A stretch of DNA of 64,000 bases. Origin: an uncultured bacterium. GTDB lineage: Bacteria; Margulisbacteria; WOR-1; CAVSGV01. The stretch covers positions 276,253 to 340,252 of the forward strand of contig CAVYHE010000003.1 in the NCBI GenBank assembly GCA_963768305.1. Reading direction: 5' to 3'. Each line of letters opens with the position of its first letter. Position 1 is the stretch's first letter. This document shows, one piece after another, positions 18,308-42,667 of the stretch. The notes below the pieces were generated by a model that saw only the letters and a list, made by a program, of their open reading frames with translations, was not told where the DNA came from and searched no databases. The position numbers and the translations under genes were made by a program.

Positions 18308-18862
18308 TTAGAAATCGAGATTTATGCCCAGCGAAATAAGCGTCGGAAGGCCTATTCCCAGCCTTGTCCTGACGTTATCTGTCAGAAGCCATTCATATCC
18401 CATTTCAGCGTTGAGGATGCCCAGCTCAACATAGGTCAAATGATTGACACCAAGCATGTTCCTCGCCTGGGTGGGGACGTCACTGTCGCTTATGCCGGGG
18501 TTGTTTTTCTTTACCGCTATTACGGCCGCTTTCATGTCCGCGACTGACGGATATCCGCTGAACCATGTATAGCCGAACCCTATCCCCGAGATCAATCCGT
18601 ATTCATCTCTCGGGAAGTCGATGCCGTCCTTGTCAACGAACCCTATTAAAGGGCTGCCGCCGAAACCAAGGCCGATAGTGAAATGGTTGGTGATGACGGA
18701 CGGATCTGCCGCTCCCAACGCCGGTTCAGCTGGCGGCGTCGGAGGCGTCACTACCTCAGCTTTTGGTTTTTCGGTGGTAGGCGCAGGTGCTCCCGCGAAT
18801 GCCGCCATTCCGAAGAGCGAAACAAAAACCGTAGCCATTAACACATACTTTGCTATCTTCAT
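18308..18862 (-). CDS. Secreted/outer-membrane hypothetical protein
   Basis: Signal peptide, Pro-rich linker, C-terminal GINLDF beta-signal. Confidence 0.7.
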   Translation of the reverse strand: MKIAKYVLMATVFVSLFGMAAFAGAPAPTTEKPKAEVVTPPTPPAEPALGAADPSVITNHFTIGLGFGGSPLIGFVDKDGIDFPRDEYGLISGIGFGYTWFSGYPSVADMKAAVIAVKKNNPGISDSDVPTQARNMLGVNHLTYVELGILNAEMGYEWLLTDNVRTRLGIGLPTLISLGINLDF

Positions 18863-18946
18863 TTTTTTACCCCCCTCAATTTATTTTGGAACTGTGTGAA
18901 TTATAAACCACGAGTAATATTTGTCAAGGGGGAATTTTGGCCAAAA

Positions 18947-18978
18947 GAAAAACCCCGGTTTTTACGCCGGGGTTTTCT
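18947..18978 (-). terminator. Rho-independent terminator
   Basis: AAAACCCCGG-loop-CCGGGGTTTT. Confidence 0.75.
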
Positions 18979-19010
18979 TGAGACTTAAATATATATAAGT
19001 CCTTCAGGAA

Positions 19011-19795
19011 CTAGAACATGTACACATAGCCGACTGAGAGACCGGAAACTGAGCTGGCAGAGCCATCCTTATCGCCTGTGGCCGAATGCCCATGCGCCGT
19101 GACCTCGCCCCAAGAATCATTTTCCGTATCATACTCAATTGCTACCGCCTGGTTATCGGCAATGCCGACATAAACGCCCAGGTTGAACATAAGGCCGGTA
19201 CCGGGGACGGCATCAACTTTTGAACCGCCAATAGTTTTCCCTAAATCCTGTGACAAGGATTTCAGGGCTACCCCTCCGTACGGCACGCAGATACCGATCT
19301 GCTTGCTGAATATCGCGGCAAGAGCATAGGTGGTCACAACGACTGATGTGTTTGAGAGGTTATCTGCCTTCAAGCCAACAGTGGACTGCTCATAGCCGAC
19401 CAATACCGCTGCATCGCAAGGTAACATGTTCACGGATTTCGGAAGCGTATATTTCACGCCTAAATCGAGAATGCTGCCGGATGTCTGTTTTACGCCTGGT
19501 AATATGTCATCCAATGCCGGGATGTTAACCAGAGTAGTAACAGCATAGCCGCCCACAACATCCAGTCCGTCCATTATTCCGTAGGTTCCTTTGACGCCTA
19601 AGCCTGTTGCATCCATAAATCTGGGGATCCATTTGGTTGTTATTTGCGATATTGCCATTATGGCTGCCTCCATAAACGCCCAACAGGTCCCAGTTGCCCT
19701 TGCCCACTCCATTGGCGGTCAAAAAGCTGACCGACGCGAATGAAGAAGCGGCGAACATCATGATTATCAGCTAATGCTAAAATTGTTTTCTTCAT
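19011..19795 (-). CDS. Outer-membrane beta-barrel protein (frameshifted)
   Basis: MKKTILALA signal from 19795 after GGAGG; alternating beta pattern; ends VGYVYMF. Confidence 0.65.
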
Positions 19796-19910
19796 AATTT
19801 TCCTCCATTTTTCATTTTGAAAAAACGGATTTCTTTTTCACCTCCTTTCATTTAAATTTGATTTAAAATGTAATGCCAGGATCGAACTAGCCGATCATGG
19901 CAACCGACCT

Positions 19911-20573
19911 TTACTTTGCTTTAAAAAGATTCGTCAGGAAATCCGCCGCAATGTCCTTGCAGCCAAGCCCGAAAGCTATGGCGAACGCAAGTCCCACGGC
20001 GCCTACTATCACGCTGAACGACGCGACTATTATCGCCGATGAGATCCCGAGTATCTCTATCGCCTTCAAAAAACCGAAAATATTAACGCTGTACTGAGCG
20101 ATCCTCGCAAGTGTCTTTGAGTTGGAAAGGCCCACATTGTTCGCTATGACCATCACTATGCCGGCAATGACAACGGAAAGAAAGATCGAAAGCCCCATAA
20201 TGAAAATGGCGGCAATGACAGCGACGGAATAATTAAGGAGCATGTTCAAGAGCTCTTTCGAATTCGCGGGGCCGTACGCCATCGCTATGGAAGTGACCGA
20301 GATGAATATAACGAGCCAGTACACCAATTCTCCCAGAAGTTCCGTCGGGGATCTCTTTATTTCGCCCCTTGTGAGGAACGGCGTGAAGCCTATGGATGCA
20401 AGGCCTTTATCAAGCATGGCGGCTTTTAATATGTATACAACGATGAGCTGGAGCCCTTTTGCGACAAGAAGAGCGACAAGCAGAAGCACCAGAGAGACCA
20501 GAAGATTGAGAAGCAAAGGAGAAATCGTGTTCGCGACATCCATTATCGGATTCAATATCATTTGTAAGTCCAT
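19911..20573 (-). CDS. CmpX/MscS-like TM-helix-repeat membrane protein
   Basis: Multi-TM; GLAFAIAFGLGCKD motif. Confidence 0.75.
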   Translation of the reverse strand: MDLQMILNPIMDVANTISPLLLNLLVSLVLLLVALLVAKGLQLIVVYILKAAMLDKGLASIGFTPFLTRGEIKRSPTELLGELVYWLVIFISVTSIAMAYGPANSKELLNMLLNYSVAVIAAIFIMGLSIFLSVVIAGIVMVIANNVGLSNSKTLARIAQYSVNIFGFLKAIEILGISSAIIVASFSVIVGAVGLAFAIAFGLGCKDIAADFLTNLFKAK

Positions 20574-23236: not shown

Positions 23237-23869
23237 ATGAGTAATATAATTTCATTTTTCAGCTTATTCGTAGCCATTGCTTCATTTTTTAGGGATAAGA
23301 TTTTTGAGAACTTTAAGCCTGCATTAAAAATCGAAGCACAAAATAGATCTCCGGATTGCGTAAAAACCCCCTTTTATACTCCCGATAGAGTCGTGAAAAT
23401 TGATGGATATCAATTTCGCATAAGAATTATCAATGATAGTAAACAAGAAGCTACAAGAGTGAGGGTGACGGCAGAAAGGCTTGAGAAAATGGTTAATGGT
23501 AGTTTTGTTGCCGATAATAATTTTATCCCCTTATTTTTATTTTGGACCCATCATAGGACGACGGAAGTAAATATTTATAGTGAAACATATGCTTTTTGTG
23601 ACTTTGGTATCATATATCACCCGCAAGGCCGCTTCGAAATTTATGGGGACGATCCGACGCTACCTACAATATTGGAATTAGATACGACAGTAAAACCTTT
23701 CACAAAGAGCAATCTTATTCCACCAGGCAAATACTGGTTGACGATCAAAGTGTCGGGGTCAAATATTAAGCCTACAATCAAAAAGATTATTATTGATAAC
23801 AGTGGGAAATGGTTTGACGATGAACGGGAAATGTTAATTCAAGGTACAACAATTAAGGTTTTGGATTAG
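23237..23869 (+). CDS. Low-GC hypothetical protein with N-terminal TM
   Basis: 210-aa ORF, AAGGTG RBS. Confidence 0.65.
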   Translation: MSNIISFFSLFVAIASFFRDKIFENFKPALKIEAQNRSPDCVKTPFYTPDRVVKIDGYQFRIRIINDSKQEATRVRVTAERLEKMVNGSFVADNNFIPLFLFWTHHRTTEVNIYSETYAFCDFGIIYHPQGRFEIYGDDPTLPTILELDTTVKPFTKSNLIPPGKYWLTIKVSGSNIKPTIKKIIIDNSGKWFDDEREMLIQGTTIKVLD

Positions 23870-23912
23870 TATTGCTCGTTTATGTTTTTTGTCTCAACAC
23901 TCTATACATGCG

Positions 23913-24125
23913 TCATTTCAATCTTTCCCATATTTGTAAAACGAATCCTAATATAAGCAGAATGATTCCGGGCCAAAATACATACAAATTAATTATAGCA
24001 AAAGGGATGTTTATCGTATGCCACAAAAAATGACAGCCGGTTTCATAAGCCCCTGTGTTTTCAGAAACTGAAAAAGCAATAAATATACTTCCCAAAAAGT
24101 TTAAGATTAAACCTACTAAACCCAT
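23913..24125 (-). CDS. Small membrane hypothetical protein
   Basis: 70 aa, hydrophobic ends. Confidence 0.45.
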   Translation of the reverse strand: MGLVGLILNFLGSIFIAFSVSENTGAYETGCHFLWHTINIPFAIINLYVFWPGIILLILGFVLQIWERLK

Positions 24126-24200
24126 TTTATTGATTCGCTTTCTGCGCTCCCAAATAAATAGTATTCATATTTTGTGATTTCATTTATTGATGAAGTAAAA

Positions 24201-25125
24201 TGGGATTAAAGCCCCCTCCTCGAACTGTCAGCATCATTCTACAGAATACAATTCATGGGTGCAAGAAGCTGAATCTGGGCCGTTCAGGATGATCATCAGA
24301 TACTGTGAACTAACCTGGGAACTTCACAGTATCCCTTTATGCTCGACTGGAGCACACAGGCACGCACGCACGGGCGCAGGAGGCGCGGCCAGGCGCAAAC
24401 CAGATTAGATATTTTATTAATTAACACAAGACAGATACATTCAAACAGTTGATAGACAGATGTTGCTCTTTAGCGTGAGAGAATAGACAGAGGATCAATG
24501 ACGTTGGATACGAACACAAATGAGAGACAGAAGAACCTAACCCAATGAGTTGAAGACACGCTGGGAGCTTGAAGTTATTGCCGCTCAACTCCACCAAAGG
24601 AGCTTCTGGGATCCCCGAAAAGAAGACGCTACATTGCTGGCCTGCACGAATAACCATTCGGCTTGTGGCTCTTGCTGAATATGTTGATGACAGCTGCCGG
24701 CGCATAGAAAAAGAGCGACGGGTATTCGCAATCGTCATAGATAACCAAGCTGGTCGGACTGCTCTAACTGGTCGTTTCCAGAGAGGAATTAAGGCTTTGC
24801 TTGAACCTCCTCAAGTGATCGTTCGTTGTGTTCCTGTGTTGCCTTCTCCGTGGTCCCGCCAAAGGAGAATGACCTCTCCTTCGCTCTTCGAGCTACGAAG
24901 GGCTGGCAATTAAGGTGTGCTACGCACATTTGAAAGGGAAAGACCATAATTCCTGCTCCGCCTTCGGCGGTATTTAACTTCGTGTCTTGCCGCCCGCCAA
25001 TCCTTCGACAAGCTCAGGACAAGTGCCCGCCAAAAAAGAACCAAAGCTCCTGCTCCGACTTCGTCGGTATTTGACTTCGTGTTGTGCCGCCGCCCGCCAA
25101 ACCTCTCCCAAAATGATGGTGGGGG
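24201..25125 (+). repeat. attL plus ~925-bp P' arm (inverted copy at 40797-41715)
   Basis: Manual alignment: near-identical outer ~280 bp, more diverged centre. Confidence 0.95.
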
Positions 25126-25193
25126 AAAAACCTGGCACGTCATACTCAAAAAAAGTGGTGAAAAATGATACTAATTTAAGGCCGAAAAACCAC

Positions 25194-25254
25194 CGGTTAT
25201 TTCACAGTATCCTATCGGGTATTTCACAGTATCGAGCGGTTAGTTCACAGTAAG
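25194..25254 (+). promoter_or_regulatory. Three iteron-like direct repeats CGG(T/G)TA(T/G)TTCACAGTA
   Basis: TTCACAGTA at 25201, 25223, 25244 (22/21-bp spacing). Confidence 0.75.
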
Positions 25255-25291
25255 TTGACTTTGTTGGCCACCCAAGACCATAATTCCCCCC

Positions 25292-26764
25292 ATGGCTGAA
25301 GAGCTGGAATACTTAACTCTTAATGAGATAAAAGCTTTTCTTAACTCCATCGACGATATCCGCGACCGGGCGCTGATAACCCTATTTCTTAACACCGGCC
25401 TATTCCTGAACGAAATAACCTCGCTGAAAATTGATTCCGTCGACTGGAAGAATAAAATTCTGAATGTCCCCGGAAACCGTAAAAGGGCCATTCCTCTCAA
25501 CGACCAGGTTTTTGATGCGCTTGCCAAATGGTCGAAGGAGCGTCCCTCGGGCAATATCTCCGAGCTTTTTGTCACAACAAAAGGCGCGCTGAAAGATCTG
25601 ACCAGCCGCGGCGTAGATTATCTGATTAGAAAATACGCCGATCAAGCAGGCATCAAAAAAACGGGTCAATCCGCAGATACTTCGCAATACATTCGCAGTC
25701 CGGCTTTTCTCCGAAGAACCCTCCGTGGAAAAAGCTTCCGCCATTTTGGGCATATCCGATCTGGAATCGGTAAATCGCTATATAAGGGCCTCTAAATTGC
25801 CGCCGGCCAGGGTAGAGATAACTGAAAATCTTGAGCATATCGATACTCGCCATCCCCTTGTCAAAGCCGTTTCCAAAATGTTCCCGACAAAACCCAAAGC
25901 CGTTAAGCCGACGACCGAAATAAAAGGCCCAATAACTCCCAGCCCCGAAGAAGTGATCTTCGGAAGGGATAACATAATCGCCGACATAAAAGCCGATATC
26001 GCCAAAGGCCAGTCTGTTTTATTGACGGGTCCTCTGGGAATAGGCAAAACGCATTTATTGAAGCACATGTTAAAAGTGCTTGGTCCTAATACAATATATA
26101 TATCATCCCCAACCCCGCTTAAAACCGCCCTGATGCAAATACTCGTAAAACTTGATCCTGAATGGAATAAGACGCTGAATACAAGAGCTTCAACGAAAGA
26201 TATAACCGACTATATTGTGAAAGATAAAAGGGGAAAAGCCTCCCGTCCTGCTTATCGACAATTTAAATAATATCAAGATTTCTGATATTGATCCTGTTTT
26301 AAGCTTTTTGAATAACTTCCCCGTACTTGCCGCGGCTGATGAAACAAAGCCCAAGCTGAAGCAGATATGGTGGCAGCTCAAACAGGTCGCGCTTCCGCCG
26401 TTAAATGAAGATGCCTCAAAGGAACTTATCAAATATCTTACGCAGAACCTTACTATCAGCGATTATGAAATGCTTGAAACAAGGATATCTGACCCTTTCA
26501 AGCGGCCTTCCCATCGCGATCGTAGATATGGTCCGTCAAATAAGTCATATCCGGAAGATTTCAGTTGATGTTATTCGTGATGTTTATCACGAAGCCGGGA
26601 TTCAATATCGCGACTGGACGATGGTAATAATCTTCATTTACTGGATAGCCGTCATTTTCAGGTTCCTTGCGCTCGGCACGAAAAGCTATGAGGCGTATTT
26701 CCTTGCAGGTTTCGGCGTAACTTTATTGATGATATTAAAAAATGTTATGTCAATGTTGAGGTAA
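25292..26764 (+). CDS. Degenerate tyrosine-recombinase catalytic domain + P-loop ATPase + C-terminal TM fusion (~490 aa, 3 frameshifts)
   Basis: RDRALITLFLNTGLFLNEI, NPQILRNTFA, LGISDLESVNRY; Walker A GPLGIGKT; Walker B-like VLLIDN; two TM at the end; frames join at ~25655, ~26230, ~26487. Confidence 0.72.
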
Positions 26765-26815: not shown

Positions 26816-27271
26816 ATGACAAGAAGAGAATTTATTGAAAAATGTTTTGGCAACAAACTTCAGGCAATCCCTTACAGTGAAGGCGACCATTTTAATGCTT
26901 TAGAGGAGGTCGAATCGCTACTTACTAAGCAAGGGCTTATTAATTTAGATGAGAATGATATTGAGCAAATAACCAGTACAAGCGACAAGTTAGTGGCGAT
27001 TTCTGCTGAGGCCCACGGAAAACATCGGTCGCACAGACTTGGTCACAAAATCCTTTCAAACATACCTGATTTCTTTTGGGATAAGAAACCCACAAATGCA
27101 TTATTTAATATCACGGGAAGTCCCGATATAACACTAAATGAGGTTAATGATGTTGCTGAACACATTTACGATTCAGTGAATCCCCACGCGAATATCATTT
27201 TTGGCGCGATTATCGATGAAAATAAAACCGATTACTTAAAAGCCACCGTGATATTCGGCGGCAAAAAATAG
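26816..27271 (+). CDS. Stand-alone FtsZ C-terminal domain protein
   Basis: GLINLDEND (T7-loop-like), LFNITGSPDITLNEV, ANIIFGAIIDE, ATVIFGG; no GGGTG GTPase motif. Confidence 0.8.
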   Translation: MTRREFIEKCFGNKLQAIPYSEGDHFNALEEVESLLTKQGLINLDENDIEQITSTSDKLVAISAEAHGKHRSHRLGHKILSNIPDFFWDKKPTNALFNITGSPDITLNEVNDVAEHIYDSVNPHANIIFGAIIDENKTDYLKATVIFGGKK

Positions 27272-27288
27272 AAATGTGAGGTTAAAAT

Positions 27289-27855
27289 ATGGAACCAATT
27301 TTTACTTTATCCTTTCCGGAATATAAGGTTGTTCTGAAGTTATTGGGGCTCTATAAGCCAAAATATGGCTATTCAATATTATTGCCGTTGAGCAGGCAGC
27401 AAAAAGGCTTCGATCTGCTAATTTACAATTTAAATAAACATAGATCTGCTTCAATCCAGGTAAAAGGCTCTCGCTCATATGACGGACATAAAAACGATCC
27501 GCATGATTATAATCTTTGGTTTAAGAGGTTTAAATATAAAGAGGGTATGGCCGATTTTTATATTCTGTTTAGTGTATATCCCCAATTGGCTTCTAATATA
27601 AAGCGTCTCGATCATTCAAGAAATACATCGCGTTACAGCTATTTATTCATGCTATTAAAAGATGTTGAGATGGAGAAGCTCTTGGTTAACCTTAAAACTA
27701 AAAAAGGGAAAAGGGATAACTCTTTTCAGTTCGGTTTTGACTCTTCTGGCAGAAATATATTTCTGACCAGAGGTATTGGTAGGCAGAAAGAGAAGCCCTA
27801 TAATAAATATCTGCTGGAGAACAGGGTCGATTTGATAAAGAAATTTCTGAAATAG
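27289..27855 (+). CDS. PD-(D/E)xK nuclease-fold protein
   Basis: QKGFDLL..SIQVKGSR. Confidence 0.65.
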   Translation: MEPIFTLSFPEYKVVLKLLGLYKPKYGYSILLPLSRQQKGFDLLIYNLNKHRSASIQVKGSRSYDGHKNDPHDYNLWFKRFKYKEGMADFYILFSVYPQLASNIKRLDHSRNTSRYSYLFMLLKDVEMEKLLVNLKTKKGKRDNSFQFGFDSSGRNIFLTRGIGRQKEKPYNKYLLENRVDLIKKFLK

Positions 27856-27862: not shown

Positions 27863-29199
27863 ATGCTCGCACCCACCCATAGCGTATTCGGCATCTTTTT
27901 AACGCTGATATTCCTGGCGGTGTTCGGGATTCAGTGGAGCCTGCATTGGACGATAATTCTTGTTGCCATTTTTGGCTCGATCGTTCCCGACATTGACCAT
28001 CCCCGTTCCGTCATAGGCAAGCTCTTCCCCTATATCTCCATCCCCTTAGAGCGCAGATACGGCCATAGAACGATAACCCATTCCTTCATCGGCTGGATAA
28101 TTTCAACTGTCATTTTTGCTTTTCTTGTCTTGCTTGTAGTTTTGATATTTAAATTTGTTTCGATTCTCGGACTTCCGTTTCGGGTTTTATCTTGGGCGGA
28201 GTCGAGGGCTTGGCTCCCCGCTGGATAGCCGCATTTTCAATATCTTATTTTTCCCACCTGCTTTTGGACATGTTCAACAAGCGCGGCAGCCAGATGTTCT
28301 GGCCTAACCTCAGTCGTGATGTTATCCCGAAAAATCCAAAATACCGCCCTGAATCGGGCTCAAGCGTTGAGCCTTTTATCTTCATTATTCTTTTCATATT
28401 GATGCTTTTTGCTTTCCCGATCTCCAAATACGGGATAGCAAGTTCGCTTCGCTGGCTTATGGCTACTCCCGGCTCCGCCATGCAAGAATTCCAGTCCCTC
28501 AAGACCCATTCCTATGTTGATTTCAACGGCTATTACACGGAAACAAAAGAGCCGCTTGAAGGGACCGCAGAAATACTTGATGTAGACAAAGGACGGCTGG
28601 TAGTACTTTATAAGACCAAGATTTACACGTTAAGTGACGCTCTAGCCGCCGATATAACCGCCTCCCATGTCCGGCTGAAAAGGACGGATATTCCAATTAA
28701 TATCACGCAGAAGATATTTAAGGATGAAAACCGCGATGAGTTGCTTGCTCAAATTCCTGCAGGCGCGCTTGTTTCGGGAACAGTTAAGCTCCCGGAAGGA
28801 ATGGAGCTTCAATTCCCCGCCTTCCCCGGCTCTTATAAGCCAATGGATCAGAAAAGCGGGAACCTGATCCTTTTATTCGCCTCAAAAGACCAAATTGAGA
28901 AGCTTGCCCTCACGGAAACCTTCGATCTGCTAAAAAGAAAGGACCAGGCCGACCTCGCCCAGCTGTACGCGCAGGCGGATAAGCTCAAAAGCCAGATATC
29001 GGAAGCGGAAACTGGCGGCGGACTAACTCCTTTGGGCCAGGAGCTTATGATGAACAAGGATGACATCCAAAAGCAAAAAGCCCAGCTTGCCGATTTGAAA
29101 GGCCAGCTTGATGAAATAAATGTTAAAATTGAAGAGCTTCAATTGAAGATAAAGGCCAGAAAGTTCGTTTTTTCAGGAGAGGTTTATTTAAGGCAATAA
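27863..29199 (+). CDS. YdjM-like metal-dependent membrane hydrolase with soluble coiled-coil extension (frameshift ~28190)
   Basis: THS, PDIDH, GHRTITHS, SHLLLD motifs. Confidence 0.75.
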
Positions 29200-29210: not shown

Positions 29211-29742
29211 ATGAGAAAATTAGTCGTTTATCTTGTAATAATGAGTTTATTGTCCCCGCTTATCGGCTCTATTGCTTATGCTTTTGAGTATACCCTCGCC
29301 CCAAATGATACTCTTGAAGATCAAATTAATGCCAAAAGGACATGGATACAAAGCAAACTATCGCTCCGGATGGCACAATTTCGCTTCCCTTCCTCGGAAG
29401 GGTCCAGCCTCAGGGCAAAACGCTCAGTGAATTTCAAACCTATTTAACAACCGAACTTGCCAAATATGTGAACAAGCCTCAGCTTGTCGTTTATCTTAAC
29501 GCCAAGATCGATATATGTCGTTCAGCATAATCTCAAGACGAATCTTTCAGAGGTAAGGAAGCTAAATCCATTGACAGAAGCTAAAGCATTATGCTGGCGA
29601 GGATTACACAAAAGAGATCAAATATGGCGATGTTATAACCGTCGATGTCGGCATTCAGCCTGATTGGTGGGAAACTAACTGGTACAAGGTCATATCCGCA
29701 ACGGCTGTGCTCGTAGGAATAGATGCGGCATTAAAGAAATAG
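29211..29742 (+). CDS. Polysaccharide-export (Wza-like Poly_export) domain protein (frameshifted)
   Basis: Signal peptide, YTLAPNDTL, IAPDGTISLPFLGRV, KYVNKPQLVV, C-terminal amphipathic helix. Confidence 0.7.
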
Positions 29743-31214: not shown

Positions 31215-34200
31215 ATGAGTAAACACGGGCAAAACAATCAAAAAGGAGTATTCGCCCAAAATTGGGCTGCTCTGTCATTGTTTCTCCAATTCTATAAAGA
31301 TCCGAAGTTTTCGTACATTCAACTTGAACCAAACACTTCGGAAGATTTTGATCTCGTCTTTAATGATGGGAAAAAGATTGTTTGCGAAACAAAATACAGG
31401 ATAAAGAAGTTCAATTATGCAGATTTAAAGCTTTTACTTTCAAAGATATTGGACCGGAAATCGATATCAGAGCAGGATGAAATATTAATAGTTTGTCGAT
31501 CTGTTAATGAAACCTTAGCTTCGGATGTCAAAAATATCAGATTCTTTAATCGTTTAGAAGAGAAATTCCTAGAGAAGAATTTTAATAAGCAAATGATAGG
31601 ATTGATTCCAAGGGTTAGTTTTTGGGTTATTAATAAATCGTTACATAAGGACATTAATTTACCATTAATATCACAAGCAATAAATCTATGGCTTCCCCAA
31701 CAAGACCTGAAGAAATTTACCGACCATATTATGCAAGATAAAATAATGCGATTGTCGACGCAAGGAAGAGCGTATAGCCGAAATGATTTTAATAATGAAA
31801 TCAACAATCTAAATGCATATGTCTTGCAAAGCAGCGATAAGTTCAATAAAAGGTTAACACGAAAAGAGAAACAATTCAAAATGTTGGAAGACGATGTAAA
31901 CAGGAACAAAGGGATTAAGTGGGGAACGGCCTCATCATCCGCCATTTCTGCTCAATGGGATTTAATGTCTTTTGTTTTAACAAAATTAAGGAAGAGAAAC
32001 GATCTTGATCTCAAGAAATGGGATGATTTGTGGCAACTCAAAAGTGCTTTTCAGTTTATTTATACCGTTTTCGATATCTTTAAAAATAATATGGGGACTG
32101 AACAAAATATGACATATATCCTTGGATATATTCAAAGAGATATCAAGGGAATACGTGGTTTCTATGGCCATTCGGACTTCTTTAATCATGGAGTTGTTGA
32201 GCTTGTGACAAAGATAATTGATGCCCCAAGCGGGCATAAATATCTGAAAGAAGCATTTGCCATTGTTAAATATCTTATTAATTTCAATAAAGATGAATAT
32301 TTCTATCTTAAAGATCGCGACCAGGATCGGGGCCAGTGGGAAAAGGAAGAAATATGTAAGTTAATAACGAAGATATATAAAATTGCCCCCCCTGAGATTA
32401 AGGAATCTGTTTTCCAGCTAATTACATCGGGATTTAACCTCACGGAAGACGAAGGTGAATTTAGCCATTATGCGCCAAGAGAAGCTTTCGAAATTATCAG
32501 GGAGTGGTTAAATGAAGATTTTGTTAATAGAATCACTCCGCTAGTAAATATAATTGTAGATCAATATAAAAGGTTTTATAAGAAGTTTGGGAAAAATATT
32601 GAATTTAAAGGCTGGGAGCTTATGGGCGGTGGAGTCGGAATCTGGGAGGGGAATTATCGTGTTTCAGATCGTCATTTTATTGAATATATCTTGTCACCAG
32701 CTATCAGAAAATATTATGAATCAAATAAAGCTGCCGGTTGGCAATTAATACTAGATAAGTTTATTAGTAAGACAGCACAAGTTAGTTCTCACCAACCTGA
32801 TTTCTTAAATAGAGCCGTTTTCGATATTGTATGCGAAAGATATGCAGAAGGAGATGAAAATTCTAATCGCCAAGCTTTCAAGATTCTTAAAGAGTTCATT
32901 CTTTCCCCCAAAGGGATTCCACATAAATCCGAACTAATCTATCAGAACATAGATCGCCCAACAATGTCTGACGAAAAGAAATGGAAGCTGGTTAAGATTA
33001 TGACCGATAAATATGACATTCCTGCCAATCCTTTTATTGAGCCAATAGTTGCTGGACTAGTAAAGAAAGGGCATCCCAAAGCCAAACAGTTATTAATAGG
33101 GTGGTTTATGAACCCGAAATTCTATCCTCGATTCCCTTTTGATGGCAGATATATCTCTACAATTAAGGGATTAATTGAAACAAACTTAGATTTATCAATT
33201 GATTTATTTAAAATCATAATGCGGAGTGAATATATTAAAACGGCAAAATCAGAGCATTATGATGTTTATGATGTTGCAAACATATTATTTGAGATATTGA
33301 AAAGAGATTATGTGCAAGGTTTATCCATTATTCGAATGTTGGAATCCGAGAAGGCATTGAGCATCGATCAACAGATTATCTACACTTATAGCTTATGCAA
33401 TTATCGTGGGAATGAAGACTCAGATGATTTAAATCTACTTATTAAAGTGTATGCCGATATTGTTGATCCATTTCTGACAAGGATGCATGATGATATTAAT
33501 TCTATTAACCATGTATTGACTTTTGATAATAGCAGAGAAGCATTAATACAGTTTGCCTCAAGGTTGGCTGCTAAGGGCAAAATCCATGAGGCATTAAGAA
33601 TAGTTAAAGTCTTTTTAGATGATACCGATCCATATCTACCTTCTAACGCCCCAGTGGGTTATAAAATTGAATATAATGAACACCAAAGAATCGAAAGAGG
33701 AGAAGCGCCACTCACAATTACATCTGTGAGAGGATGGTGTGCGTGGACTTTGATGAGATGTTCGGTTTTGTCTGGAAGAGAATACATCCCAATGGTAATT
33801 GAATTTACAAAGAAGTTGATTGAAGACAATAACTATTATGTTGTTCATTTGGCATGTAATGCATTGGCTCACCTAGCTAGAAACCGTCTGACAGTATTGC
33901 CAAAGAATAGTGATATTATGTTCTTTAACGATGATAAGCGAAAAGCTCTGGAAATGGCAAAAGATGTCGAAAAAATTGCTTTTTCACTCCTAGATAGGTT
34001 TGTTGGCTGGCCAACTCCAGTTCAAAAGGCACTTATTAAAGATGTAATATATGTATTTGATAACATTACTCAGCTGAACGAATCAGATGCTACAAAATTA
34101 GTTACCAAATTAATAGGCTTGCCGAAGGAGGCCGTTGCAGAATCTGCCCCATTATTAATATTCTTTGCTGAAACGAGAAGAGATTGTTATGCAAAATGGA

Positions 34201-34844
34201 ACACATATTATCCAGGATTATATGATGATCTTGGACCTGATAAATATAACTCAGACATTTTCAAGAAGATTCTTACTGACACGATTAAATCCTTGATGAA
34301 GGATAATCCCAAAAATTGCTTTCGATTTGCCTCCACTTTTGAACACATGTTGCGTCATGATGTCGAAAGAAAAGCCGACGCCGAGCAATCTACAAAACTG
34401 GGACTGAAATATTTTAGACTTTTGATGGAGCCTTACTCTCATTCAATTTATAACATTATCTTTCAGGTTATTCAAGATAGGATGAAAAATCCGGATAAAT
34501 ATTTAGATGAATGGTTTTTATTGTTCATAGAATGCTTAAATCTCGAAAACAGATACTATGATAATGCGGTTAAAATGGGGAATCTTGAAAAGGTATTTTG
34601 GTTTCCTTCTTTCTATCATTCAGATATATTAGAATTAATCTATAAAGGAATGGGCCAAGATAAATTTATGAGGGCTGCAAAGATATTCTTTAATTTTCCA
34701 AAAGGAATGCAACTAGAAGAATCTTCAAAACTTGTTAATATAATTAAAGAATTATCAAAATCAGATAAAGAAGCGCAAAGGATCATTAAAACTCTAATCA
34801 AAAACAATCCTGGTAAATATTGGGATTTAAAAGAGAAGAAGTAA
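31215..34844 (+). CDS. 1209-aa protein: N-terminal PD-(D/E)xK (Cap4-like) nuclease + long helical region
   Basis: KGVFAQ..EPNTSEDFDL..VCETKY; low GC; no Walker A seen. Confidence 0.65.
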   Translation: MSKHGQNNQKGVFAQNWAALSLFLQFYKDPKFSYIQLEPNTSEDFDLVFNDGKKIVCETKYRIKKFNYADLKLLLSKILDRKSISEQDEILIVCRSVNETLASDVKNIRFFNRLEEKFLEKNFNKQMIGLIPRVSFWVINKSLHKDINLPLISQAINLWLPQQDLKKFTDHIMQDKIMRLSTQGRAYSRNDFNNEINNLNAYVLQSSDKFNKRLTRKEKQFKMLEDDVNRNKGIKWGTASSSAISAQWDLMSFVLTKLRKRNDLDLKKWDDLWQLKSAFQFIYTVFDIFKNNMGTEQNMTYILGYIQRDIKGIRGFYGHSDFFNHGVVELVTKIIDAPSGHKYLKEAFAIVKYLINFNKDEYFYLKDRDQDRGQWEKEEICKLITKIYKIAPPEIKESVFQLITSGFNLTEDEGEFSHYAPREAFEIIREWLNEDFVNRITPLVNIIVDQYKRFYKKFGKNIEFKGWELMGGGVGIWEGNYRVSDRHFIEYILSPAIRKYYESNKAAGWQLILDKFISKTAQVSSHQPDFLNRAVFDIVCERYAEGDENSNRQAFKILKEFILSPKGIPHKSELIYQNIDRPTMSDEKKWKLVKIMTDKYDIPANPFIEPIVAGLVKKGHPKAKQLLIGWFMNPKFYPRFPFDGRYISTIKGLIETNLDLSIDLFKIIMRSEYIKTAKSEHYDVYDVANILFEILKRDYVQGLSIIRMLESEKALSIDQQIIYTYSLCNYRGNEDSDDLNLLIKVYADIVDPFLTRMHDDINSINHVLTFDNSREALIQFASRLAAKGKIHEALRIVKVFLDDTDPYLPSNAPVGYKIEYNEHQRIERGEAPLTITSVRGWCAWTLMRCSVLSGREYIPMVIEFTKKLIEDNNYYVVHLACNALAHLARNRLTVLPKNSDIMFFNDDKRKALEMAKDVEKIAFSLLDRFVGWPTPVQKALIKDVIYVFDNITQLNESDATKLVTKLIGLPKEAVAESAPLLIFFAETRRDCYAKWNTYYPGLYDDLGPDKYNSDIFKKILTDTIKSLMKDNPKNCFRFASTFEHMLRHDVERKADAEQSTKLGLKYFRLLMEPYSHSIYNIIFQVIQDRMKNPDKYLDEWFLLFIECLNLENRYYDNAVKMGNLEKVFWFPSFYHSDILELIYKGMGQDKFMRAAKIFFNFPKGMQLEESSKLVNIIKELSKSDKEAQRIIKTLIKNNPGKYWDLKEKK

Positions 34845-34886: not shown

Positions 34887-37800
34887 TTATTTCCTAAGAA
34901 AATCAATCTCATCGATCTCTTTCATGATTCTGTATGTTTCTGTCAGGGCAACAATCATTTTCTGATAATGTTCAATATCTTCATTTGATAGTTCCCGGCC
35001 TTTACGGTCCTTAAGCCATTTTTGTGCGGGCTGATAACCGCCGATGTAAAAGTTCCACGCAATTTCCGGCACTTTTCCAAAATATTGCTCTGCATTAATG
35101 TATATCTTGCCATCTTTATAGGTTACCTTTTCAACAGTATCTGAGCCGGAAGCGGGATATGTAGTAATATATTTATCCACTTTAGGAGATTCAAGCAGAT
35201 GTAGTTCCCGCAACTCTGTCCCAAGTTTTACTAACTTTTTGAATGTTTTTGTGTCTTTCGGATATGGCACACGAGGAAAATCTATTTTCAAGAATTCTTT
35301 ATACTTATTACGGTATCTAGGCGAATACAGAACAGCATAAATATAATCATAAATATCTTCCGGATTTGTTTGGCCGATTATACTTTCTATTTTAATGGTA
35401 ATTTCTTTGTTAAGGTTTGATACTCTTTCATCCCCTACAGGGTAAAGATAAAGTGGAAAAACATATGTTTGATCACTAGCAGCATGAATATCGGCAATAG
35501 ATTTAGAAACATATGCCCTATCAAAAGGTTGATTGGCCGGCATTGAACGCGAAGAGAGTAAGGTGATATTATCTCTGCCAACAACATTCACATTTGTTTT
35601 TTCTCTTGGATATGCAATAAAGCCTTTTGAATTTCCACTATATGCTGTGTACCGCACATCAAAAGGACGATAAAGTATTTGTTCAATACTATACTTCTTG
35701 CTCAAATCCTCTTTTGCCCATTCGACTTTCCAATCTCGCCCATCTTCTGGCAATTGGTATTTACTTCTTATTTCTAAATCAGACAATGTTTGGAAATCAT
35801 CAATTACTTTTTTAATGTCCTTTTTTGAAAATTGCACAGTAGTATCATCGCGTTTCGTTTGAATGCCAGAATTGTATTCGTGAAATATTTCAGTTAAAGA
35901 AACCCCGTTTTTATATTGCTCTTCTAGCCCAAAATCCTTAGGAACAAAGAAATAATAAGGATCGTTATATTCAATGTTTTTCCATTTCACCTTTTCTATT
36001 TCGGTTTCACTGAGTATTTCATATTTCGCTTCCCGGCTGCCATATAACTCTGAATGATAAACGACTCCTAGTCCCGTTTTATTTTCGCTTTTGCGGACAA
36101 ATATCGAAATAGCCACTCCTTGTTGTATATCAAATACATTTTTATCTTCTTTATTCAGCTCTTTCTTTCTTGAACTCCCATGAAGATCAAGCACATATAT
36201 CTTTTCAAAGGTTTCAAGCAAATGCTTCCTCATTTGGCGATGTGTAATACCATCCAAGAAAGAGTTATTAGTAATCATTGCAACAATGCCAGTTTTGTTT
36301 TTTTCAATAAAATGCTCTGCAAGTCGAATAAATTTAATATAATCATCATCCAAGTTTATCTTTTTTTCGCCAAGACCTTTTTTGTAATCATCTAGTTTAG
36401 ATAATATCCATGCCCCTTTATTCTTTGATTTTACATTGTAAGGTGGATTACCCATGACCACCATAATCGGAGTTTCATTTTTAATCATATTCTGCCTGCT
36501 TTGGCCTCTTCTGCAATGCTTTCTGCCAAACCAAAAGCAAATCATAGCTTGTTGGTTTGCGCCTTCCTCAAGTGAATTAGTTAAATAAATTCCAAGACGA
36601 TTATTAAACATTCTAAAATCCGATAATTTAAGTGCAATACTTAATTTAAGATGAGCGATAGTATATGGAGTCATCATTAATTCAAAGCCATGTAGACGCG
36701 GCAAAAGGTCATTATGTACATATGCTGGCCAGCTGCCCATCTTGGCCCTGTTCATTTGAGATATTCATATATGTTCCTGAATAGTTTCACTAATAAATGT
36801 CCCTGTGCCGACTGCCGGATCAAGAATTTGCACACGATGTTTCCCATTCGGTAGTTTTGATGCATCAGCAAGCCCATCTCGAAGCTGAAATCTTTTGCAA
36901 AATATGATCAACAGCATCGAACAATAAAATCGAACAACCGGCAATGGTGTATAAAACGCCCCCATTTTCTTATCGAAGTTCAGGATCATATTCTTTTAAA
37001 AAGTCCTCGTAAAAATGAATCACAGGATCTGGTGCATTCTTGTTTACCCACATAATCATCCCTATAAGTACTTCTATTAGTTATTTGAGTTTGCATGATG
37101 AAACAGATATCACAATTCATCAACGATAAACTTAAGCGCTTATCAAAATCGGCCCCGGCGATATGATCAAAAAAATGTCTTAAAAATGGGTTAGATGCGG
37201 GAATTAAATCTCTTGCGCTTCTGACGTGAAAAAGTATCAGGGGTTTCATCGTAATATCTTGCAACAAATAAGCCATAGACTAGAGTTTGGGCATACATAT
37301 CGGCAAAAGCATTCCTGAGTCAGTCGTGAACAAGAGCTTTTTTATCGTTTCATATACACGCAATATCTCTGTATTTTTTTTGAATCTAAATCTGAAGAAA
37401 GATAATGCCTAATATTGTCCCTTATTCTTTGAGCCTTACCTCCCATGATCTTTGCAAGGTGCTCACCTGACTTGATTGGCTCTTTTTGTGATTGTGTAAA
37501 GTCGATAAGGGTTTTCGCGACATGTTCATAATTTTCCGGTAAAGGTGCAATTGAACGTGTCTTAAGGTCATATTCTGCTATTTTTATTGGTTCTTCATAA
37601 CGTTCTCCATTCCTATAAAACCTGAAATTCAAGATAATCCGTAAGAACTAAATTCGTATAGCCATAATATCTTGCCATTTGCTCAGATTTTTCAACTTTA
37701 TCTAATGGAACACCAATATCTTTTGCTTCAATATAGAGAATAGGGACACTATTGTTGATTACGACAAAATCCGGTTTATTCCCTTCTGCTGCTCTTTCAT

Positions 37801-37957
37801 CGTGGCCTATGCGTTGAACCTTTATCGTCTCAAATATTCCGTTTAACAATATTTCAAAATCGGTACGGTAGCCCATCTCGCTTGTTTCTGTGTGGGTAAA
37901 TTTAGAGGCAACAGACTTTAGATATTTGGACATTAAATCTTTTGTATTTTCTGCCAT
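34887..37957 (-). CDS. Type IIG/ISP-like restriction-modification enzyme (N6 MTase + nuclease + TRD; several frameshifts)
   Basis: KPDF..YIEAKD, GAFYTP, ILDPAVGTGTF, GNPPY, GGYQPAQKWLKDRKGR. Confidence 0.85.
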
Positions 37958-38472
37958 TGCTTTGAATTATACGCCCATAAGAAAAGAGAGTAAAGATTAG
38001 AAGTTCTTGCTCCCAGCCTTTTCTGTTTTGAATTTTATCCGTCGCTTTCTGTTGAAAACCACAAAACAGTGTTAATGAAATCGACGGCATCTTCAAGCGA
38101 AAACCCCAATTCCATGAGGAATTCGATTTTTCCCATCATTGTTATCACCTTTGATTAGTATTATTTTGCTCCCCAGCCTTTCCAGTATAGCATTTTACCG
38201 CCTTTTCCCTGTAAAGAGCGCTCACGTTAGGACTTCGTATAAAGCTCTCTGTCCCGAAAAAATCCTCATCCTTGCGGATTTTTTCGGGGATTAGTTCGCG
38301 CTCTCCTCCAGTCGCCCGCCTCCGGCGAGGCTCCTTCCGGCCCTCCGCTCGTTGCGCTCTCTCGCCCATATATTAGCTTTAGGTAGGCTCAATCGCTCCA
38401 CTCGCTTCGGGTGACAGGGGCGGTAAAATGCTGTTCCTTCCTATGTTTTCATTTCATAGGGAGGTGGTTTTC

Positions 38473-39005
38473 ATGTCTCGTTTGGCAGGTGTCATTGGTT
38501 CTCGTTCATTGCCCGCTTCTTTTGCTCCGCTTGTTTCCCGCGTTGTTTCTCTTCTTCTTTCCCGTGGCTACAGCATTGCCTCCGGCGGCGCCGTGGGCGC
38601 TGATTCATTTGCTCTTGAGGCTGTCATTCAGCAGGGGGCGGCTTCACGCGGCATCATTCATTCAGCTTGGGCTTCTGCTTCTGGCTTTCCTAGCGTCCGT
38701 TCAGCCTCAGGTTTCTCGCTTTCATTGCTTCCGGCGGTCAGGTTGTTTGGGGCTCGGCTCAGCCGGGTCAGTCCCGTTCTGCTGTTGTTTCAGCTCTTCT
38801 CGGCAGGAACAGGCGGCTTGTTTCTGCTTCCTCGGTTGTTGTTGCTTTCCTTCACGGCCAGTCTCGCGGCTCTCTTTACACAGTCCGTCAGGCCATTGAG
38901 CAGGGCGTTCCGGTCATTGTGTTCCTTTGCGGCGGCGGGGCGTCTTTGCCGGCTGATTTGGCTTCCAGGTGTTTAGTATTTACGGAAAAGGAGGTGTTAT
39001 TATGA
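38473..39005 (+). CDS. DprA/SLOG family protein (frameshifts ~38690-38725)
   Basis: GVIGSRS, SGGAVGAD, then LLGRNRRLVSAS..SRGSLYTVRQA..GVPVIVF; GGAGG RBS; ATGA overlap with next gene. Confidence 0.78.
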
Positions 39006-39169
39006 GAATTTGCAGAGTGTGCGGTTCATTCCTCGTTCCTTGCAACGAAGGAATAGATCATATCGTCTTCTATCATCCTATCCTTCATAGGCATGTTTAT
39101 ATCTGTCAGACCTGTCTTACAGAGATTCAGAATATCCTCGAGTACGGCTTCCTCGCTCCCTGCGCTTAA
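39002..39169 (+). CDS. Small zinc-finger protein
   Basis: AGGAGG RBS; CRVC..CQTC. Confidence 0.6.
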   Translation: MRICRVCGSFLVPCNEGIDHIVFYHPILHRHVYICQTCLTEIQNILEYGFLAPCA

Positions 39170-40733: not shown

Positions 40734-40796
40734 TGAATGCCTTTGTTACTGTCCAGATCCCATTTGTTTAGCCACTTTTTCAATACAAAATCCCCT

Positions 40797-41843
40797 CCCC
40801 CACCATCATTTTGGGAGAGGTTTGGCGGGCGGCGGCACAACACGAAGACAAATACCGCCGAAGGCGGAGCAGGAGCTTTGGTTCTTTTTTAGCGGGCTTT
40901 ACCCTGAACTTGTCGAAGGATTGGCGGGCGGCAAGACACGAAATTAAATACCGCCGAAGGCGGAGCAGGAATTATGGTCTTTCCCTTTCAAATGTGCGTA
41001 GCACACCTTGATTGCCAGCCCTTCATAGCTCGAAAAGCGAAGGAGAGGTCATTCTCCTTTGGCGAGATTACGGAGAAGGCAACACAGGAACACAACAAAC
41101 GATCACTTGAGGAGTTTCAAGCAAAGCCTTAATTCCTCTCTGGAAACAACCAATTAGAGCAGTCCGACTAGCTTGGTTATCTATGACAATTGCGAATACC
41201 CATCGCTCTTTTTCTTGCGCTGGCAATGGTCATCAACATATTGAGCAAGAGCCACAAGCTGAATGGTTATCATGCAGGTTAGAAATTAGCGTCTTCTTTT
41301 CAAGGATCTCAAGAGCTTCTTTGGTGAGTTGAGTGGTAATAGCTTCAAGCTCCCAGCGTATCTTCAACTCATTGGGTTAGGTTCCTCTGTCTCACATTTG
41401 TATTCATATCCAATGTCATTGATCCTTCGTCTTTCTTTCACGCTAAAGAGCAACATCTGTCTATCAACTGTTTGAATGTATCTGTCTTGTGTTAATTAAT
41501 AAAATATCTAATCTGGTTTGCGCCTGGCCGCGCCTGCTGCGCCCGTGCGTGCGTGCCTGTGTGCTCCAGTCGAGCATAAAGGGATACTGTGAAGTTCCCA
41601 GGTTAGTTCACAGTATCTGATGATCATCCTGAACGGCCCAGATTCAGCTTCTTGCACCCATGAATTGTATTCTGTAGAATGATGCTGACAGTTCGAGGAG
41701 GGGGCTTTAATCCCACATAATTATAGCTGCGAACCGCTGTGTTTTCTAAACCGGCGGTTTTTTCTTTGCGGGAAATAGCGCGGCGGGCGGCGTTTGCCGC
41801 TACCCAAACGCCGCCCGCCGAATGTTCGCCGCGTCGGGACACA
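40797..41843 (-). repeat. Internal inverted intact attP-like copy (P arm + TGG + P' arm, ~1047 bp)
   Basis: Reverse complement matches 43972-44100 + TGG + 24204-25125. Confidence 0.92.
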
Positions 41844-41869
41844 TTGTTGTTTTAGATGAGGTTTGAATT

Positions 41870-42385
41870 TTATTCGCTTTTATCTTTATCGAACATAGCC
41901 CCATAGCTGCCTCTATATCTCGATAATAAATCTCTAGCAAAATTAAAGTTCTTTCTATTGCTATACCATTTCTTCCCAAAAGCATCTTCAATAATAATAT
42001 CTTTTACTTTATTTTCATCATTTTCTAGATATGGCGAATCAAAGCTTATGTATCCATGAGCAGGGATCATTACAGGGAAAACAAGTTTTACGCCATTATT
42101 ATAATAACTATTATATTCGCTTATTTTATTTGACTCTTTATCACGATAAAGCATCCTCATTATCGTCTCGACTTTATTCCCCTGATTAACAAGAACAATT
42201 TGTGCACTCTTTTTATCGGAATATCTTGGAGACGAAGCAATGATAATCTTGATATTGCGACGTTCCTGCCTAAGGGCCAGCCAAAGTGAAACAAATACTG
42301 CAGCCATTGTCCCTATTGCTGATAATGCATGCCAGTTTATGTTGGCCGTCCATATTAGCTTAATCATCTCAATTAAATTAATCAT
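41870..42385 (-). CDS. Hypothetical protein with N-terminal TM
   Basis: 171 aa, starts 1 bp after the HTH gene stop. Confidence 0.65.
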   Translation of the reverse strand: MINLIEMIKLIWTANINWHALSAIGTMAAVFVSLWLALRQERRNIKIIIASSPRYSDKKSAQIVLVNQGNKVETIMRMLYRDKESNKISEYNSYYNNGVKLVFPVMIPAHGYISFDSPYLENDENKVKDIIIEDAFGKKWYSNRKNFNFARDLLSRYRGSYGAMFDKDKSE

Positions 42386-42386
42386 C

Positions 42387-42584
42387 TTATTTCACAAGTT
42401 TATCAATTGATACATTAAGAGCTTTAGCGATCTTATGAAGGGTGTTGATCCCAATATCCTTATATTTGCGATAAAGGATTTTTTGAAGCGTATATTGTGA
42501 TATTAAGGCTTTTTGGGCAAGTTTCGCGATAGATACTTTCCGGTATTTATTAATGTTTCTTGCAATATTCTCAATCAAGCTCAC
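42387..42584 (-). CDS. XRE/Cro HTH regulator
   Basis: SIAKLAQKALISQYTLQKIL..TLHKIAKALNVSIDKLV; GTG 7 nt after a TATAAT; divergent from integrase. Confidence 0.82.
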   Translation of the reverse strand: MSLIENIARNINKYRKVSIAKLAQKALISQYTLQKILYRKYKDIGINTLHKIAKALNVSIDKLVK

Positions 42585-42641: not shown

Positions 42642-42667
42642 CCTCGCATAAAAGGAGGTAATAACCA

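Follow-up and report, generated by a model that had tools for sequence, protein, structure and literature searches.

A catalytically degenerate tyrosine-recombinase fold joined to an ATPase and a membrane hairpin in a tRNA-integrated island of an uncultured WOR-1 bacterium

Why would a mobile element keep a tyrosine-recombinase fold that has lost most of its catalytic residues, and keep it joined to an ATPase and a membrane anchor? The question is raised by a gene at 25292-26764 (+) in a 64,000-nucleotide stretch of contig CAVYHE010000003.1 from an uncultured bacterium of the Margulisbacteria lineage WOR-1; this whole stretch is called the window. The gene belongs to an island at ~22.5-45 kb of the window, between gpmI and pgk, a place from which it is absent in the related complete genome G085, and it is the first gene within the left arm of the island's long inverted repeat. 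Its product of ~489 residues, here called the Int-like protein, consists of a tyrosine-recombinase catalytic fold, a linker, a P-loop domain with a lid and a C-terminal transmembrane (TM) hairpin. Our best reading, which we hold tentatively, is that the protein would be anchored in the membrane and would read the DNA of its own element as part of an envelope module, most likely serving the hand-over of element DNA.

The recombinase-like fold extends from 25292 to ~25800 (+) according to Pfam and to its fold match with XerA. The Phage_integrase profile PF00589 matches the first of the four frame pieces in which the gene appears (piece A; E 3.7e-15, profile positions 2-124 of 172) and continues in the second (piece B; E 0.0099, positions 126-169). 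Hence, a single domain spans the break between them. The match starts at residue 7, and XerA and 4a8e align only from their residues 138 and 103, respectively, so that the N-terminal core-binding domain is absent. This absence had been proposed by a sequence-only reading of the locus, whose Xer-like fold, Walker A motif, VLLIDN motif and two C-terminal TM helices were likewise all located where it had placed them. Residues 1-170 find their best matches in sequence and fold among XerA, XerC and XerD. The NCBIfam model XerA_Arch matches them at E 7e-31, yet with 107.7 bits against a cut-off of 220, and the PDB profile of 5hxy (XerA) at E 5.5e-22. An AlphaFold2 model was built from a 51-row alignment whose first row, P0001, is an intact homologue 87% identical to the window protein (mean pLDDT 79.6, pTM 0.53). 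It contains a compact N-terminal domain, a low-confidence linker (residues 172-215), an α/β P-loop core with a helical lid, and terminal helices at residues 442-462 and 465-488 of P0001. The top Foldseek match is XerA (5hxy; rmsd 1.9 Å over 164 columns, 25% identity).

In tyrosine recombinases, both His residues as well as R-I and K-beta are regarded as necessary for cleavage. The catalytic positions are assigned unambiguously by aligning the protein to the profiles of XerD (1a0p) and XerA (5hxy), and their occupancy was counted over 51 homologues. R-I is replaced by F in 46 of them (Y 2, T 2, L 1), K-beta by P in 25 and S in 15 (others 11), H-II by Q in 38 and K in 5 (others 8, H in none) and H-III by I in 49. 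R-II and the Tyr are each present in 51/51, and the His position that follows R-II holds N in 44. In the window, these changes are seen in the motifs TGLF (25394-25405), QILRN (25674-25688), LGIS (25746-25757) and NRY (25773-25781), all on the + strand. By alignment, four of the six catalytic positions are thus replaced throughout the Margulisiibacteriota clade (R-I to F, K-beta to P or S, H-II to Q, H-III to I), and of the full set R-K-H-R-H/W plus Tyr just R-II and Tyr are kept. The TGLF, QILR and LGI substitutions named by the sequence-only reading hold clade-wide, as does the retained Tyr; its 'HxxR is QILR' needs amending to a loss of the His only, as R-II is kept. The catalytic degeneracy that it described is confirmed and extends to the loss of K-beta, which had escaped mention.

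Is this degeneracy decay or design? Four pairs of intact genes give the Int-like domain a dN/dS ratio of 0.050-0.079, similar to that of the ATPase domain (0.034-0.102), and the Int-like domain is therefore maintained by selection rather than decaying. A FastTree of the ATPase plus TM part, computed from 77 rows and rooted at the midpoint, with support values that are SH-like only, shows the window clade as a single branch with support 100 in which 26/26 members are degenerate, whereas 30 of the 37 fusions outside it retain the full catalytic set under a strict motif test that mislabels at least P0350. The loss of the catalytic pentad thus appears as one old event that was conserved afterwards. 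Homologues retaining the R and H residues had been named beforehand as a sign of a decaying integrase; taken literally they exist in the wider family, yet the uniformly degenerate clade points to one ancient loss and not to decay. The earlier view of a repurposed recombinase domain is upheld by the same evidence, substitutions shared by the clade and kept under purifying selection.

Alternatively, the domain may still be an enzyme, though with altered chemistry: Tyr and R-II, both invariant, could nick one strand at the element's repeats, possibly with the help of a metal, in the manner of the Mg-dependent relaxase MobK. Tyr and R-II are kept in all 51 homologues despite four other catalytic changes, and the full set is kept in a sister clade described below. 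Against such altered chemistry, the four replaced positions include residues generally regarded as necessary for cleavage, and Tyr may be retained for the fold or for a DNA contact. According to the available part of the source, MobK requires Tyr and Mg2+, which suits the idea, but MobK, TcpM and MpsA are all described there as keeping the pentad (PMC8152469). We consider this explanation quite unlikely.

The gene is interrupted in the window, which raises the possibility of a pseudogene in a dying island. The open reading frame (ORF) list and a three-frame translation give the pieces A (25292-25657), B (25656-26249), C (26245-26484) and D (26480-26761). Their frames run 2, 0, 1, 2, and every break is therefore a +1 shift. 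Break 1, one extra base at 25654 (+), is ambiguous in placement by ±4 nt in the alignment to the homologues L033, L034 and L038, and the X1, X2 and X3 contigs omit the base at 25654, 25655 or 25658. Homologue alignment places one extra base each at 26223 (+; break 2), omitted at this very position in the sole covering contig, from X3, and at 26488 (+; break 3), omitted at 26487 or 26489 in X3 and X2 contigs. Compared with three intact homologous genes from related genomes (78-82% DNA identity), the window gene has exactly three single-base insertions and no further indels. The concern that reads might confirm separate ORFs is not borne out by contigs from four public sequencing runs, every one of which has one base fewer at each of the three breaks that it covers; one contig is 97% identical, and the runs represent relatives rather than the source strain, containing 5% of sampled words. 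Moreover, intact homologues of 484-512 residues with the same domain order are common, in agreement with the earlier claim that the fusion is one gene.

The same type of break affects housekeeping genes. Of the G085 proteins used as reference, 37 match the window beyond the island, and the alignments of 12 of these are spread over at least two frames (9/15 in 45-64 kb, with 13-14 frame changes, and 3/22 in 1-22 kb). Housekeeping Pfam domains are split over overlapping ORFs, among them transketolase, MurB, peptidase M24, dehydroquinase II, penicillin-binding protein (PBP), phosphoglucomutase and FtsE. Phosphoglycerate kinase (PGK; 45026-46218) has one break, with a frame change after residue ~65, and an adjoining 353-residue protein has two. 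Pieces A-D contain neither in-frame stops nor deletions and align end to end along intact homologues. From the insertions relative to these homologues, the broken housekeeping genes and the relatives' contigs that lack the extra bases, we conclude that the three breaks are very probably assembly errors and the region one gene. Counting against this, three breaks in 1.47 kb are denser than in the core (~0.7/kb in 45-64 kb, ~0.15/kb in 1-22 kb), and the genes for the YdjM-domain protein, the Poly_export-family protein and the type ISP enzyme (the last in five pieces) are broken too. A decaying integrase is nevertheless highly improbable, considering that a dozen core genes share the break type, that the closest homologue is 87% identical and that the substitutions are clade-wide at a dN/dS of ~0.06; true decay of the window copy alone stays a minor possibility in view of the local break density. 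Frame breaks are widespread in essential genes at 1-22400 and 45000-64000 of the window, and pseudogene calls anywhere in the source genome require reads.

The second half of the protein suggests a nucleotide-binding switch. The P-loop domain with its lid lies at ~25940-26590 (+), with Walker A GPLGIGKT at 26028-26051 and Walker B VLLIDN at 26245-26262, and the TM hairpin at 26624-26737 consists of two hydrophobic helices (26624-26674 and 26693-26737; all +). Piece B matches AAA_16 (26.9 bits against a cut-off of 32.6) and AAA_22 (23.1 against 27) below the Pfam thresholds, and TsaE weakly as well; the precomputed Pfam lists of homologues include PF13401 and PF13191. Foldseek relates the modelled ATPase part to RFC small subunits, RuvB, RuvBL1/2 and plant NLR resistosomes (E ~1e-7 for RFC, RuvB and NLR chains). 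The model thus suggests a place among the AAA+/STAND switches, with no assignable subfamily. The Walker A Lys is present in 49/51 homologues. In Walker B, D is present in 51/51 and is followed by N (46), H (3), G (1) or D (1), so that a conserved catalytic acid is not found; the sister clade lacks it too. A GNPR motif (sensor-2-like) of the sister clade is replaced by GLPLAI in the window clade. From the missing acid and the lost GNPR we propose an assembly switch driven by ATP. The roles that the sequence-only reading put forward (translocase or coupling protein, partition factor, DNA sensor) are all conjectural, and a Walker B of this kind suits an ATP switch better than a motor.

What does this protein work with? 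Counted over 17 loci, that is 16 related loci and the window, downstream of the gene there is a protein of ~450 residues that begins with a YdjM domain in 15/17 and a Poly_export-family protein of ~176 residues with a signal peptide in 13/17. In the window, the YdjM-domain membrane protein is encoded at 27863-29199 (+; one break near 28192-28228) and comprises a beta domain and a coiled-coil hairpin, and the Poly_export-family protein with its signal peptide is encoded at 29211-29720 (+; broken in the window). Between zero and two unrelated genes intervene (HD, DUF2971, Bro-N, AbiE, Schlafen/AlbA, DUF559, HNH and 23S-IVP). This variable cargo slot between conserved genes corresponds to 26816-27855 (+) in the window and holds a 151-residue FtsZ_C-like protein (26816-27271, +) and a 188-residue protein of no family (27289-27855, +). 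Proteins consisting of the FtsZ C-terminal part alone (147-151 residues) recur as island cargo, in the window and in G085 (C1:881032-881475 and 889775-890221); they match FtsZ_C at E 5e-15 and positions 197-323 of TIGR00065, and one copy is nearer to true FtsZ.

The YdjM protein occurs in 30 of 146 Margulisiibacteriota genomes, and among the matches listed both it and the Int-like gene are found in 25 of the 34 genomes having either, most exceptions being fragments at contig ends. Its model (pLDDT 74) shows five membrane helices, a beta domain and a helical hairpin of ~85 residues. According to the positive-inside rule, applied to the consensus sequence, its C-terminal part is probably periplasmic. 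For the beta domain, VIA-align gave a TrmB-like match (Z 10.3). A kinship with membrane-fusion proteins or ESCRT-III was considered and dropped, as the hairpin gave generic helical-hairpin matches only. A literature lead for YdjM under 'DUF457' also fell away; as far as its available part goes, that preprint concerns DUF4579 instead (bioRxiv 10.1101/2025.11.13.688252). A complex prediction for the TM hairpin (425-489) with the YdjM membrane domain (1-200) scored 0.01 against a mark of 0.32 and is uninformative either way.

The same combination is found in a wider family. A profile of the ATPase plus TM part finds 1635 representatives at 50% identity (E<=0.001), which include stand-alone forms of ~300 residues (labelled mostly cyanobacterial in the atlas, a lead only) and distant fusions of ~500 residues. 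The distant fusions match PF00589 more strongly (E down to 5e-40) and have a complete GLRVSE, HxLRH, LGH and Y set. The sister clade with the intact catalytic set is abundant in metagenomes, where a scan of contigs yielded 428 loci encoding a relative. Of 78 loci kept, 55 were analysed: a YdjM protein adjoins the gene in 51/55 and is homologous to that of the window (46/46 long members, BLASTP), and a signal-peptide protein of ~230 residues is present in 46/55. Twelve of 18 members of the latter match the TolC-type OEP family PF02321 (best E 1e-8; half-TolC). The use of Poly_export in one clade and OEP in the other looks like the replacement of one machine part.

Four sister-clade contigs are circular replicons of 8.2-14.1 kb, three of them assembled as direct repeats whose periods are 8164, 9639 and 9547 bp, and the fourth, of 14.1 kb, showing a 127-bp terminal overlap. 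The replicons carry three unrelated replication modules (DnaG-zinc/VapE primase-helicase, Rep_1 and Rep3), and some also carry ParA, ParE, methyltransferases or restriction genes. In a single case, a chromosomal copy (L109), a separate classical integrase is located beside tRNA-Pro. The module thus does not depend on one type of replication and occurs alongside ParA, toxin-antitoxin genes and integrases of separate origin in the gene order, so it is unlikely to be a replicase, a partition system or an integrase. A replication initiator, as AAA+ plus iteron-like repeats might suggest, was rejected because the sister replicons have three different Rep modules of their own. One metagenome contig of 21196 bp (L120) is a concatemer of an 8.16-kb circular replicon with two copies of the module gene interrupted by a 505-residue ORF (438-1955 and 18625-20142), probably an insertion sequence within the Int-like gene. 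L120, L132, L089 and L165 have heptamer arrays (GGTAAG/GGTAAC/CTTACC) in both orientations between the primase-helicase and Int-like genes, and these arrays, common to different replicons, may be an origin or sites of the Int-like protein.

If the protein reads DNA, which DNA could this be? The repeats pointed out by the sequence-only reading are real: TTCACAGTA has 8 exact copies in the window against 0.16 expected, 0/100 shuffles reach 8, and all but one of the 8 belong to the element. Three direct TTCACAGTA(TC) sites at 25201-25252 (+) have start-to-start distances of 22 and 21 bp. The array ends 3 bp upstream of a promoter-like site at 25255-25284 (+), a sigma-70-like TTGACT-18-CATAAT (10/12, the best of the region) identified by consensus match only, sigma-70-like sites in the region numbering 7 against 6.2 expected. 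Each repeat arm contains one inverted site pair. In the left arm it is a palindrome GATACTGTGAA-N13-TTCACAGTATC at 24299-24333, with 11-bp arms and a 13-bp spacer, and its mirror copy is at 41583-41617. The usual core site of a tyrosine recombinase has inverted half-sites around a 6-8-bp spacer. An inverted pair occurs at a like upstream distance in both G085 elements (G085a -990/-968, G085b -1361/-1338), and G082 has one half only. The triple direct sites are conserved in 4/4 elements of family f1, and other clades have triple sites of their own at the same spacing (TTCGCnnATC in G129 and G132, TTCCGCAAT in L046). The site sequence thus varies with the protein clade and the 21-22-bp phasing stays constant, which fits recognition by some element-encoded protein.

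These sites are set in a defined element. The left arm of the long inverted repeat (24201-25126) is non-coding, measures 926 bp and is 94% complementary to the right arm (40796-41715). ORFs inside the arms look like junk by eye, and Rfam gave no match on 23800-25400 at E<=1. Immediately outside the right arm follows an integration module (41713-44103) with 131/132-bp inverted repeats at 41713-41843 and 43972-44103 (99%), a helix-turn-helix (HTH) gene (42387-42668, -) and a large serine recombinase of CcrB/XisF type (42668-44128, +), and next to it tRNA-Arg(TCG) (44100-44174, -), which abuts the island end. The island is tRNA-integrated through its own large serine recombinase. G085 has two such elements of 18 and 41 kb, which abut tRNA-Gln and tRNA-Glu and have arms of 914 bp (99%) and 1292 bp (100%); the arms measure 641 bp in G082, 586 bp in G129 and 623 bp in G132. 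The serine recombinase lies directly beyond the right arm in G085, G129 and G132, too. In G145, a small element consists of the gene, the serine recombinase and tRNA-Glu, with no long repeat detected. Arm identity is 94-100% within one element and ~72-78% between elements; hence, the arms are homogenised or interacting.

Such an arrangement could equally belong to maintenance or control of the element. As an autorepressor or architectural factor, the protein could serve arm pairing, serine-recombinase directionality, resolution or segregation of the excised circle, or its tethering to the membrane for partition. The sites overlapping the gene's own promoter-like site, the matching palindromes in both arms, the likeness of the arms within an element and a Walker B of D-N that suits a switch are all consistent with this. 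For such a role, however, ParA and toxin-antitoxin genes are already provided on sister-clade replicons, and a regulator has no need of a membrane hairpin and conserved membrane and outer-membrane partners. Furthermore, in the five elements in which the Int-like gene, both repeat arms and the serine recombinase are all located, the gene lies at the end distal to the serine recombinase in the same orientation (5/5), and no flipping is seen. We regard maintenance or control as unlikely, though as an alternative to be taken seriously.

Does the module instead defend its host? A STAND-like NTPase could sense DNA through the recombinase-like domain and damage the membrane through the hairpin and/or the YdjM protein, resulting in defence or exclusion. 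The weak AAA_16, nSTAND and NB-ARC model matches and the resemblance to NLR resistosomes by fold would suit this, and AbiE, Schlafen/AlbA, HD and type ISP restriction enzymes are found in neighbours and slots. In PADLOC, the Int-like protein has matches at the P-loop level alone (mad8 E 2.5e-5, Avs2 E 0.0047) and its partners have no match. The cognate sites on the element's own DNA co-vary with the protein, suggesting self-recognition; the gene holds a fixed position at the element head in all elements examined; and the module occurs on 8-kb replicons nearly devoid of other genes. Taken together, these points leave a defence role doubtful and, in our judgement, somewhat less probable than maintenance or control.

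Compared with known systems, the protein resembles several and belongs to none of them. It differs from XerA, XerC and XerD in lacking the core-binding domain, in the four replaced catalytic positions and in the additional ATPase and TM parts. TnsF of Tn6022-like Tn7 transposons is a precedent for a catalytically inactive tyrosine-recombinase domain that a mobile element retains to read specific DNA sequences, in this case as an inactivated recombinase for DNA target selection; TnsF works with an AAA+ ATPase (TnsC), and an active-site-bearing relative, Tsy, exists (Faure et al. 2023, PMC10293859, available part). TnsF differs by its N-terminal zinc fingers, its two core-binding-like domains and its separation from the ATPase (same part of PMC10293859), whereas the window protein begins with the catalytic fold, has this fold alone and is fused to ATPase and membrane hairpin. 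None of TnsA, TnsB, TnsC and TniQ is among the Pfam results of the scanned neighbours.

The recombinase-like relaxases MobK, TcpM and MpsA are the second comparison. As described in the part of the source available, they too have a catalytic domain only, with neither core-binding nor arm-binding domain, and reside on small plasmids or islands with an oriT of inverted and direct repeats upstream of a promoter, the oriT of MobK lying just upstream of the mobK promoter; they differ in being soluble proteins of ~28 kDa that retain the pentad as well as Tyr and work through a type IV system of the host (PMC8152469). The window clade has instead lost four of six catalytic positions and carries an ATPase and a membrane anchor. 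The searches with the window protein lead to XerA and XerD, and it is set apart from MobK, TcpM and MpsA by the descriptions of these proteins. Type IV coupling proteins and TraB of Streptomyces plasmids share with it a membrane anchor and a P-loop ATPase encoded by a mobile element. TraB recognises 8-bp repeats on its own plasmid. These proteins are FtsK/RecA-type motors with N-terminal TM helices, whereas the window protein has a clamp-loader/STAND-type AAA+ fold, a C-terminal hairpin and a Walker B without the catalytic Glu. TraB is named in the available part of PMC8152469. The nearest concept is thus TnsF and the nearest architecture of the DNA-handling domain that of the recombinase-like relaxases, and the window protein is a member of neither group. 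To our knowledge, catalytically silenced exapted recombinases comprise very few cases, TnsF among them, and the recombinase-like relaxases only three described members.

How might these parts act together? In the mechanism that we tentatively favour, the recombinase-like domain would no longer recombine and would read the element's 11-bp sites, both the three phased copies at the promoter and the palindromes of the two arms. With a Walker B of D-N and no catalytic Glu, ATP binding would drive assembly instead of pumping, and the hairpin would retain the DNA-protein complex at the inner membrane beside the YdjM/coiled-coil protein and an outer-membrane component. The purpose would be to hand element DNA over to the envelope, as a mobilisation or transfer module, and autoregulation of the gene's own promoter would be a by-product. 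DNA hand-over is favoured because MobK, TcpM and MpsA likewise consist of the catalytic domain only, the MobK site lying upstream of its own promoter, because the Int-like protein is anchored in the inner membrane, because the constant YdjM partner has a large, probably periplasmic domain, and because both clades add a protein of outer-membrane-channel type.

Several observations weigh against this membrane-anchored reader and its hand-over role. The Walker B without Glu and the change from GNPR to GLPLAI argue against a DNA pump, and the annotated parts of the elements revealed neither pilus genes nor genes for type IV secretion. A pure binding role does not account for the invariant Tyr. Two of the 17 loci (L037 and L045) carry the gene without the YdjM and Poly_export partners. 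The YdjM partner has no Foldseek match at E<=0.001, and its hairpin resembles generic helical hairpins only (VIA-align; CHMP4B Z 10.5, HlyD Z 9.1). Finally, the island's HTH protein or another factor, instead of the Int-like protein, may be the reader of the repeats. In a bolder form of the proposal, which we rate as rather unlikely, the Int-like/AAA+/TM protein, the YdjM protein and an outer-membrane component, Poly_export in the Margulisiibacteriota islands and half-TolC on the small replicons, would together form a minimal machine for DNA transfer that spans the envelope and has no relation to type IV secretion. A large family of integrative plasmids (8-14 kb) and tRNA islands in diderm bacteria would carry it. 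The Int-like domain would then be a relaxase or a reader, and in the window clade either a pure reader of uncut DNA or the site of Tyr-only chemistry.

Fusion homologues extending past the integrase domain are found in at least 29 of 146 species-level Margulisiibacteriota genomes, several of them with 2-4 copies and many copies at contig ends, while the remaining genomes have, among the matches listed, Xer-type proteins of ~300 residues only. A search with piece B among longer proteins retrieved 88 proteins, mostly of 484-512 residues, with PF00589 and PF13401/PF13191. A scan across all prokaryotes (one genome per species, two C-terminal patterns) gave 29 loci, and those with taxon labels belong to Margulisiibacteriota, WOR-1, Saganbacteria and Marinamargulisbacteria, except for one 2-kb Acetomicrobium contig. 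Scanning IMG/VR with the family alignment gave 21 pattern matches and 0 relatives. In literature searches, which did not cover supplements, no account of the fusion, of the partners or of the islands came up. Homologues are named in databases as 'tyrosine-type recombinase/integrase' (Margulisiibacteriota, WOR-1, Saganbacteria) or 'EcfA2', and neither name suits the fusion genes.

The island holds further features. Other conserved genes at 38428-39169 (+) encode a DprA-like protein of 182 residues and a small CxxC protein. A 1209-residue ORF (31215-34844) has no Pfam, NCBIfam or PADLOC match and has a homologue in the G089 island (L044, 777-4403). The type ISP restriction-modification gene (34887-37957, -) is in five pieces and has a 1028-residue homologue in the G085b island. 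The arms of the window, G129 and G132 contain GC-rich hairpins of the type CCGCC-GAAG-GCGG, and the right arm of the window has a 52-nt direct repeat (40831-40882 and 40927-40978). Beyond the island end, the 5' part of tRNA-Arg is repeated exactly and directly over 33 nt (44144-44176 and 44980-45012), flanking 836 bp before pgk. This stretch contains a 211-residue ORF (44311-44946, -) with no Pfam family and may be a remnant of another integration.

Overall, the gene represents a large family that exists in two versions, with and without the intact catalytic set, always together with mobile DNA, the membrane and conserved partners. For annotators, the current names of the fusion genes are misleading. 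The intact and degenerate versions form a natural experiment on what recombinase chemistry contributes. Should the module turn out to move or anchor DNA at the envelope, this would be a new route of plasmid or island transfer or maintenance in uncultured diderm phyla.

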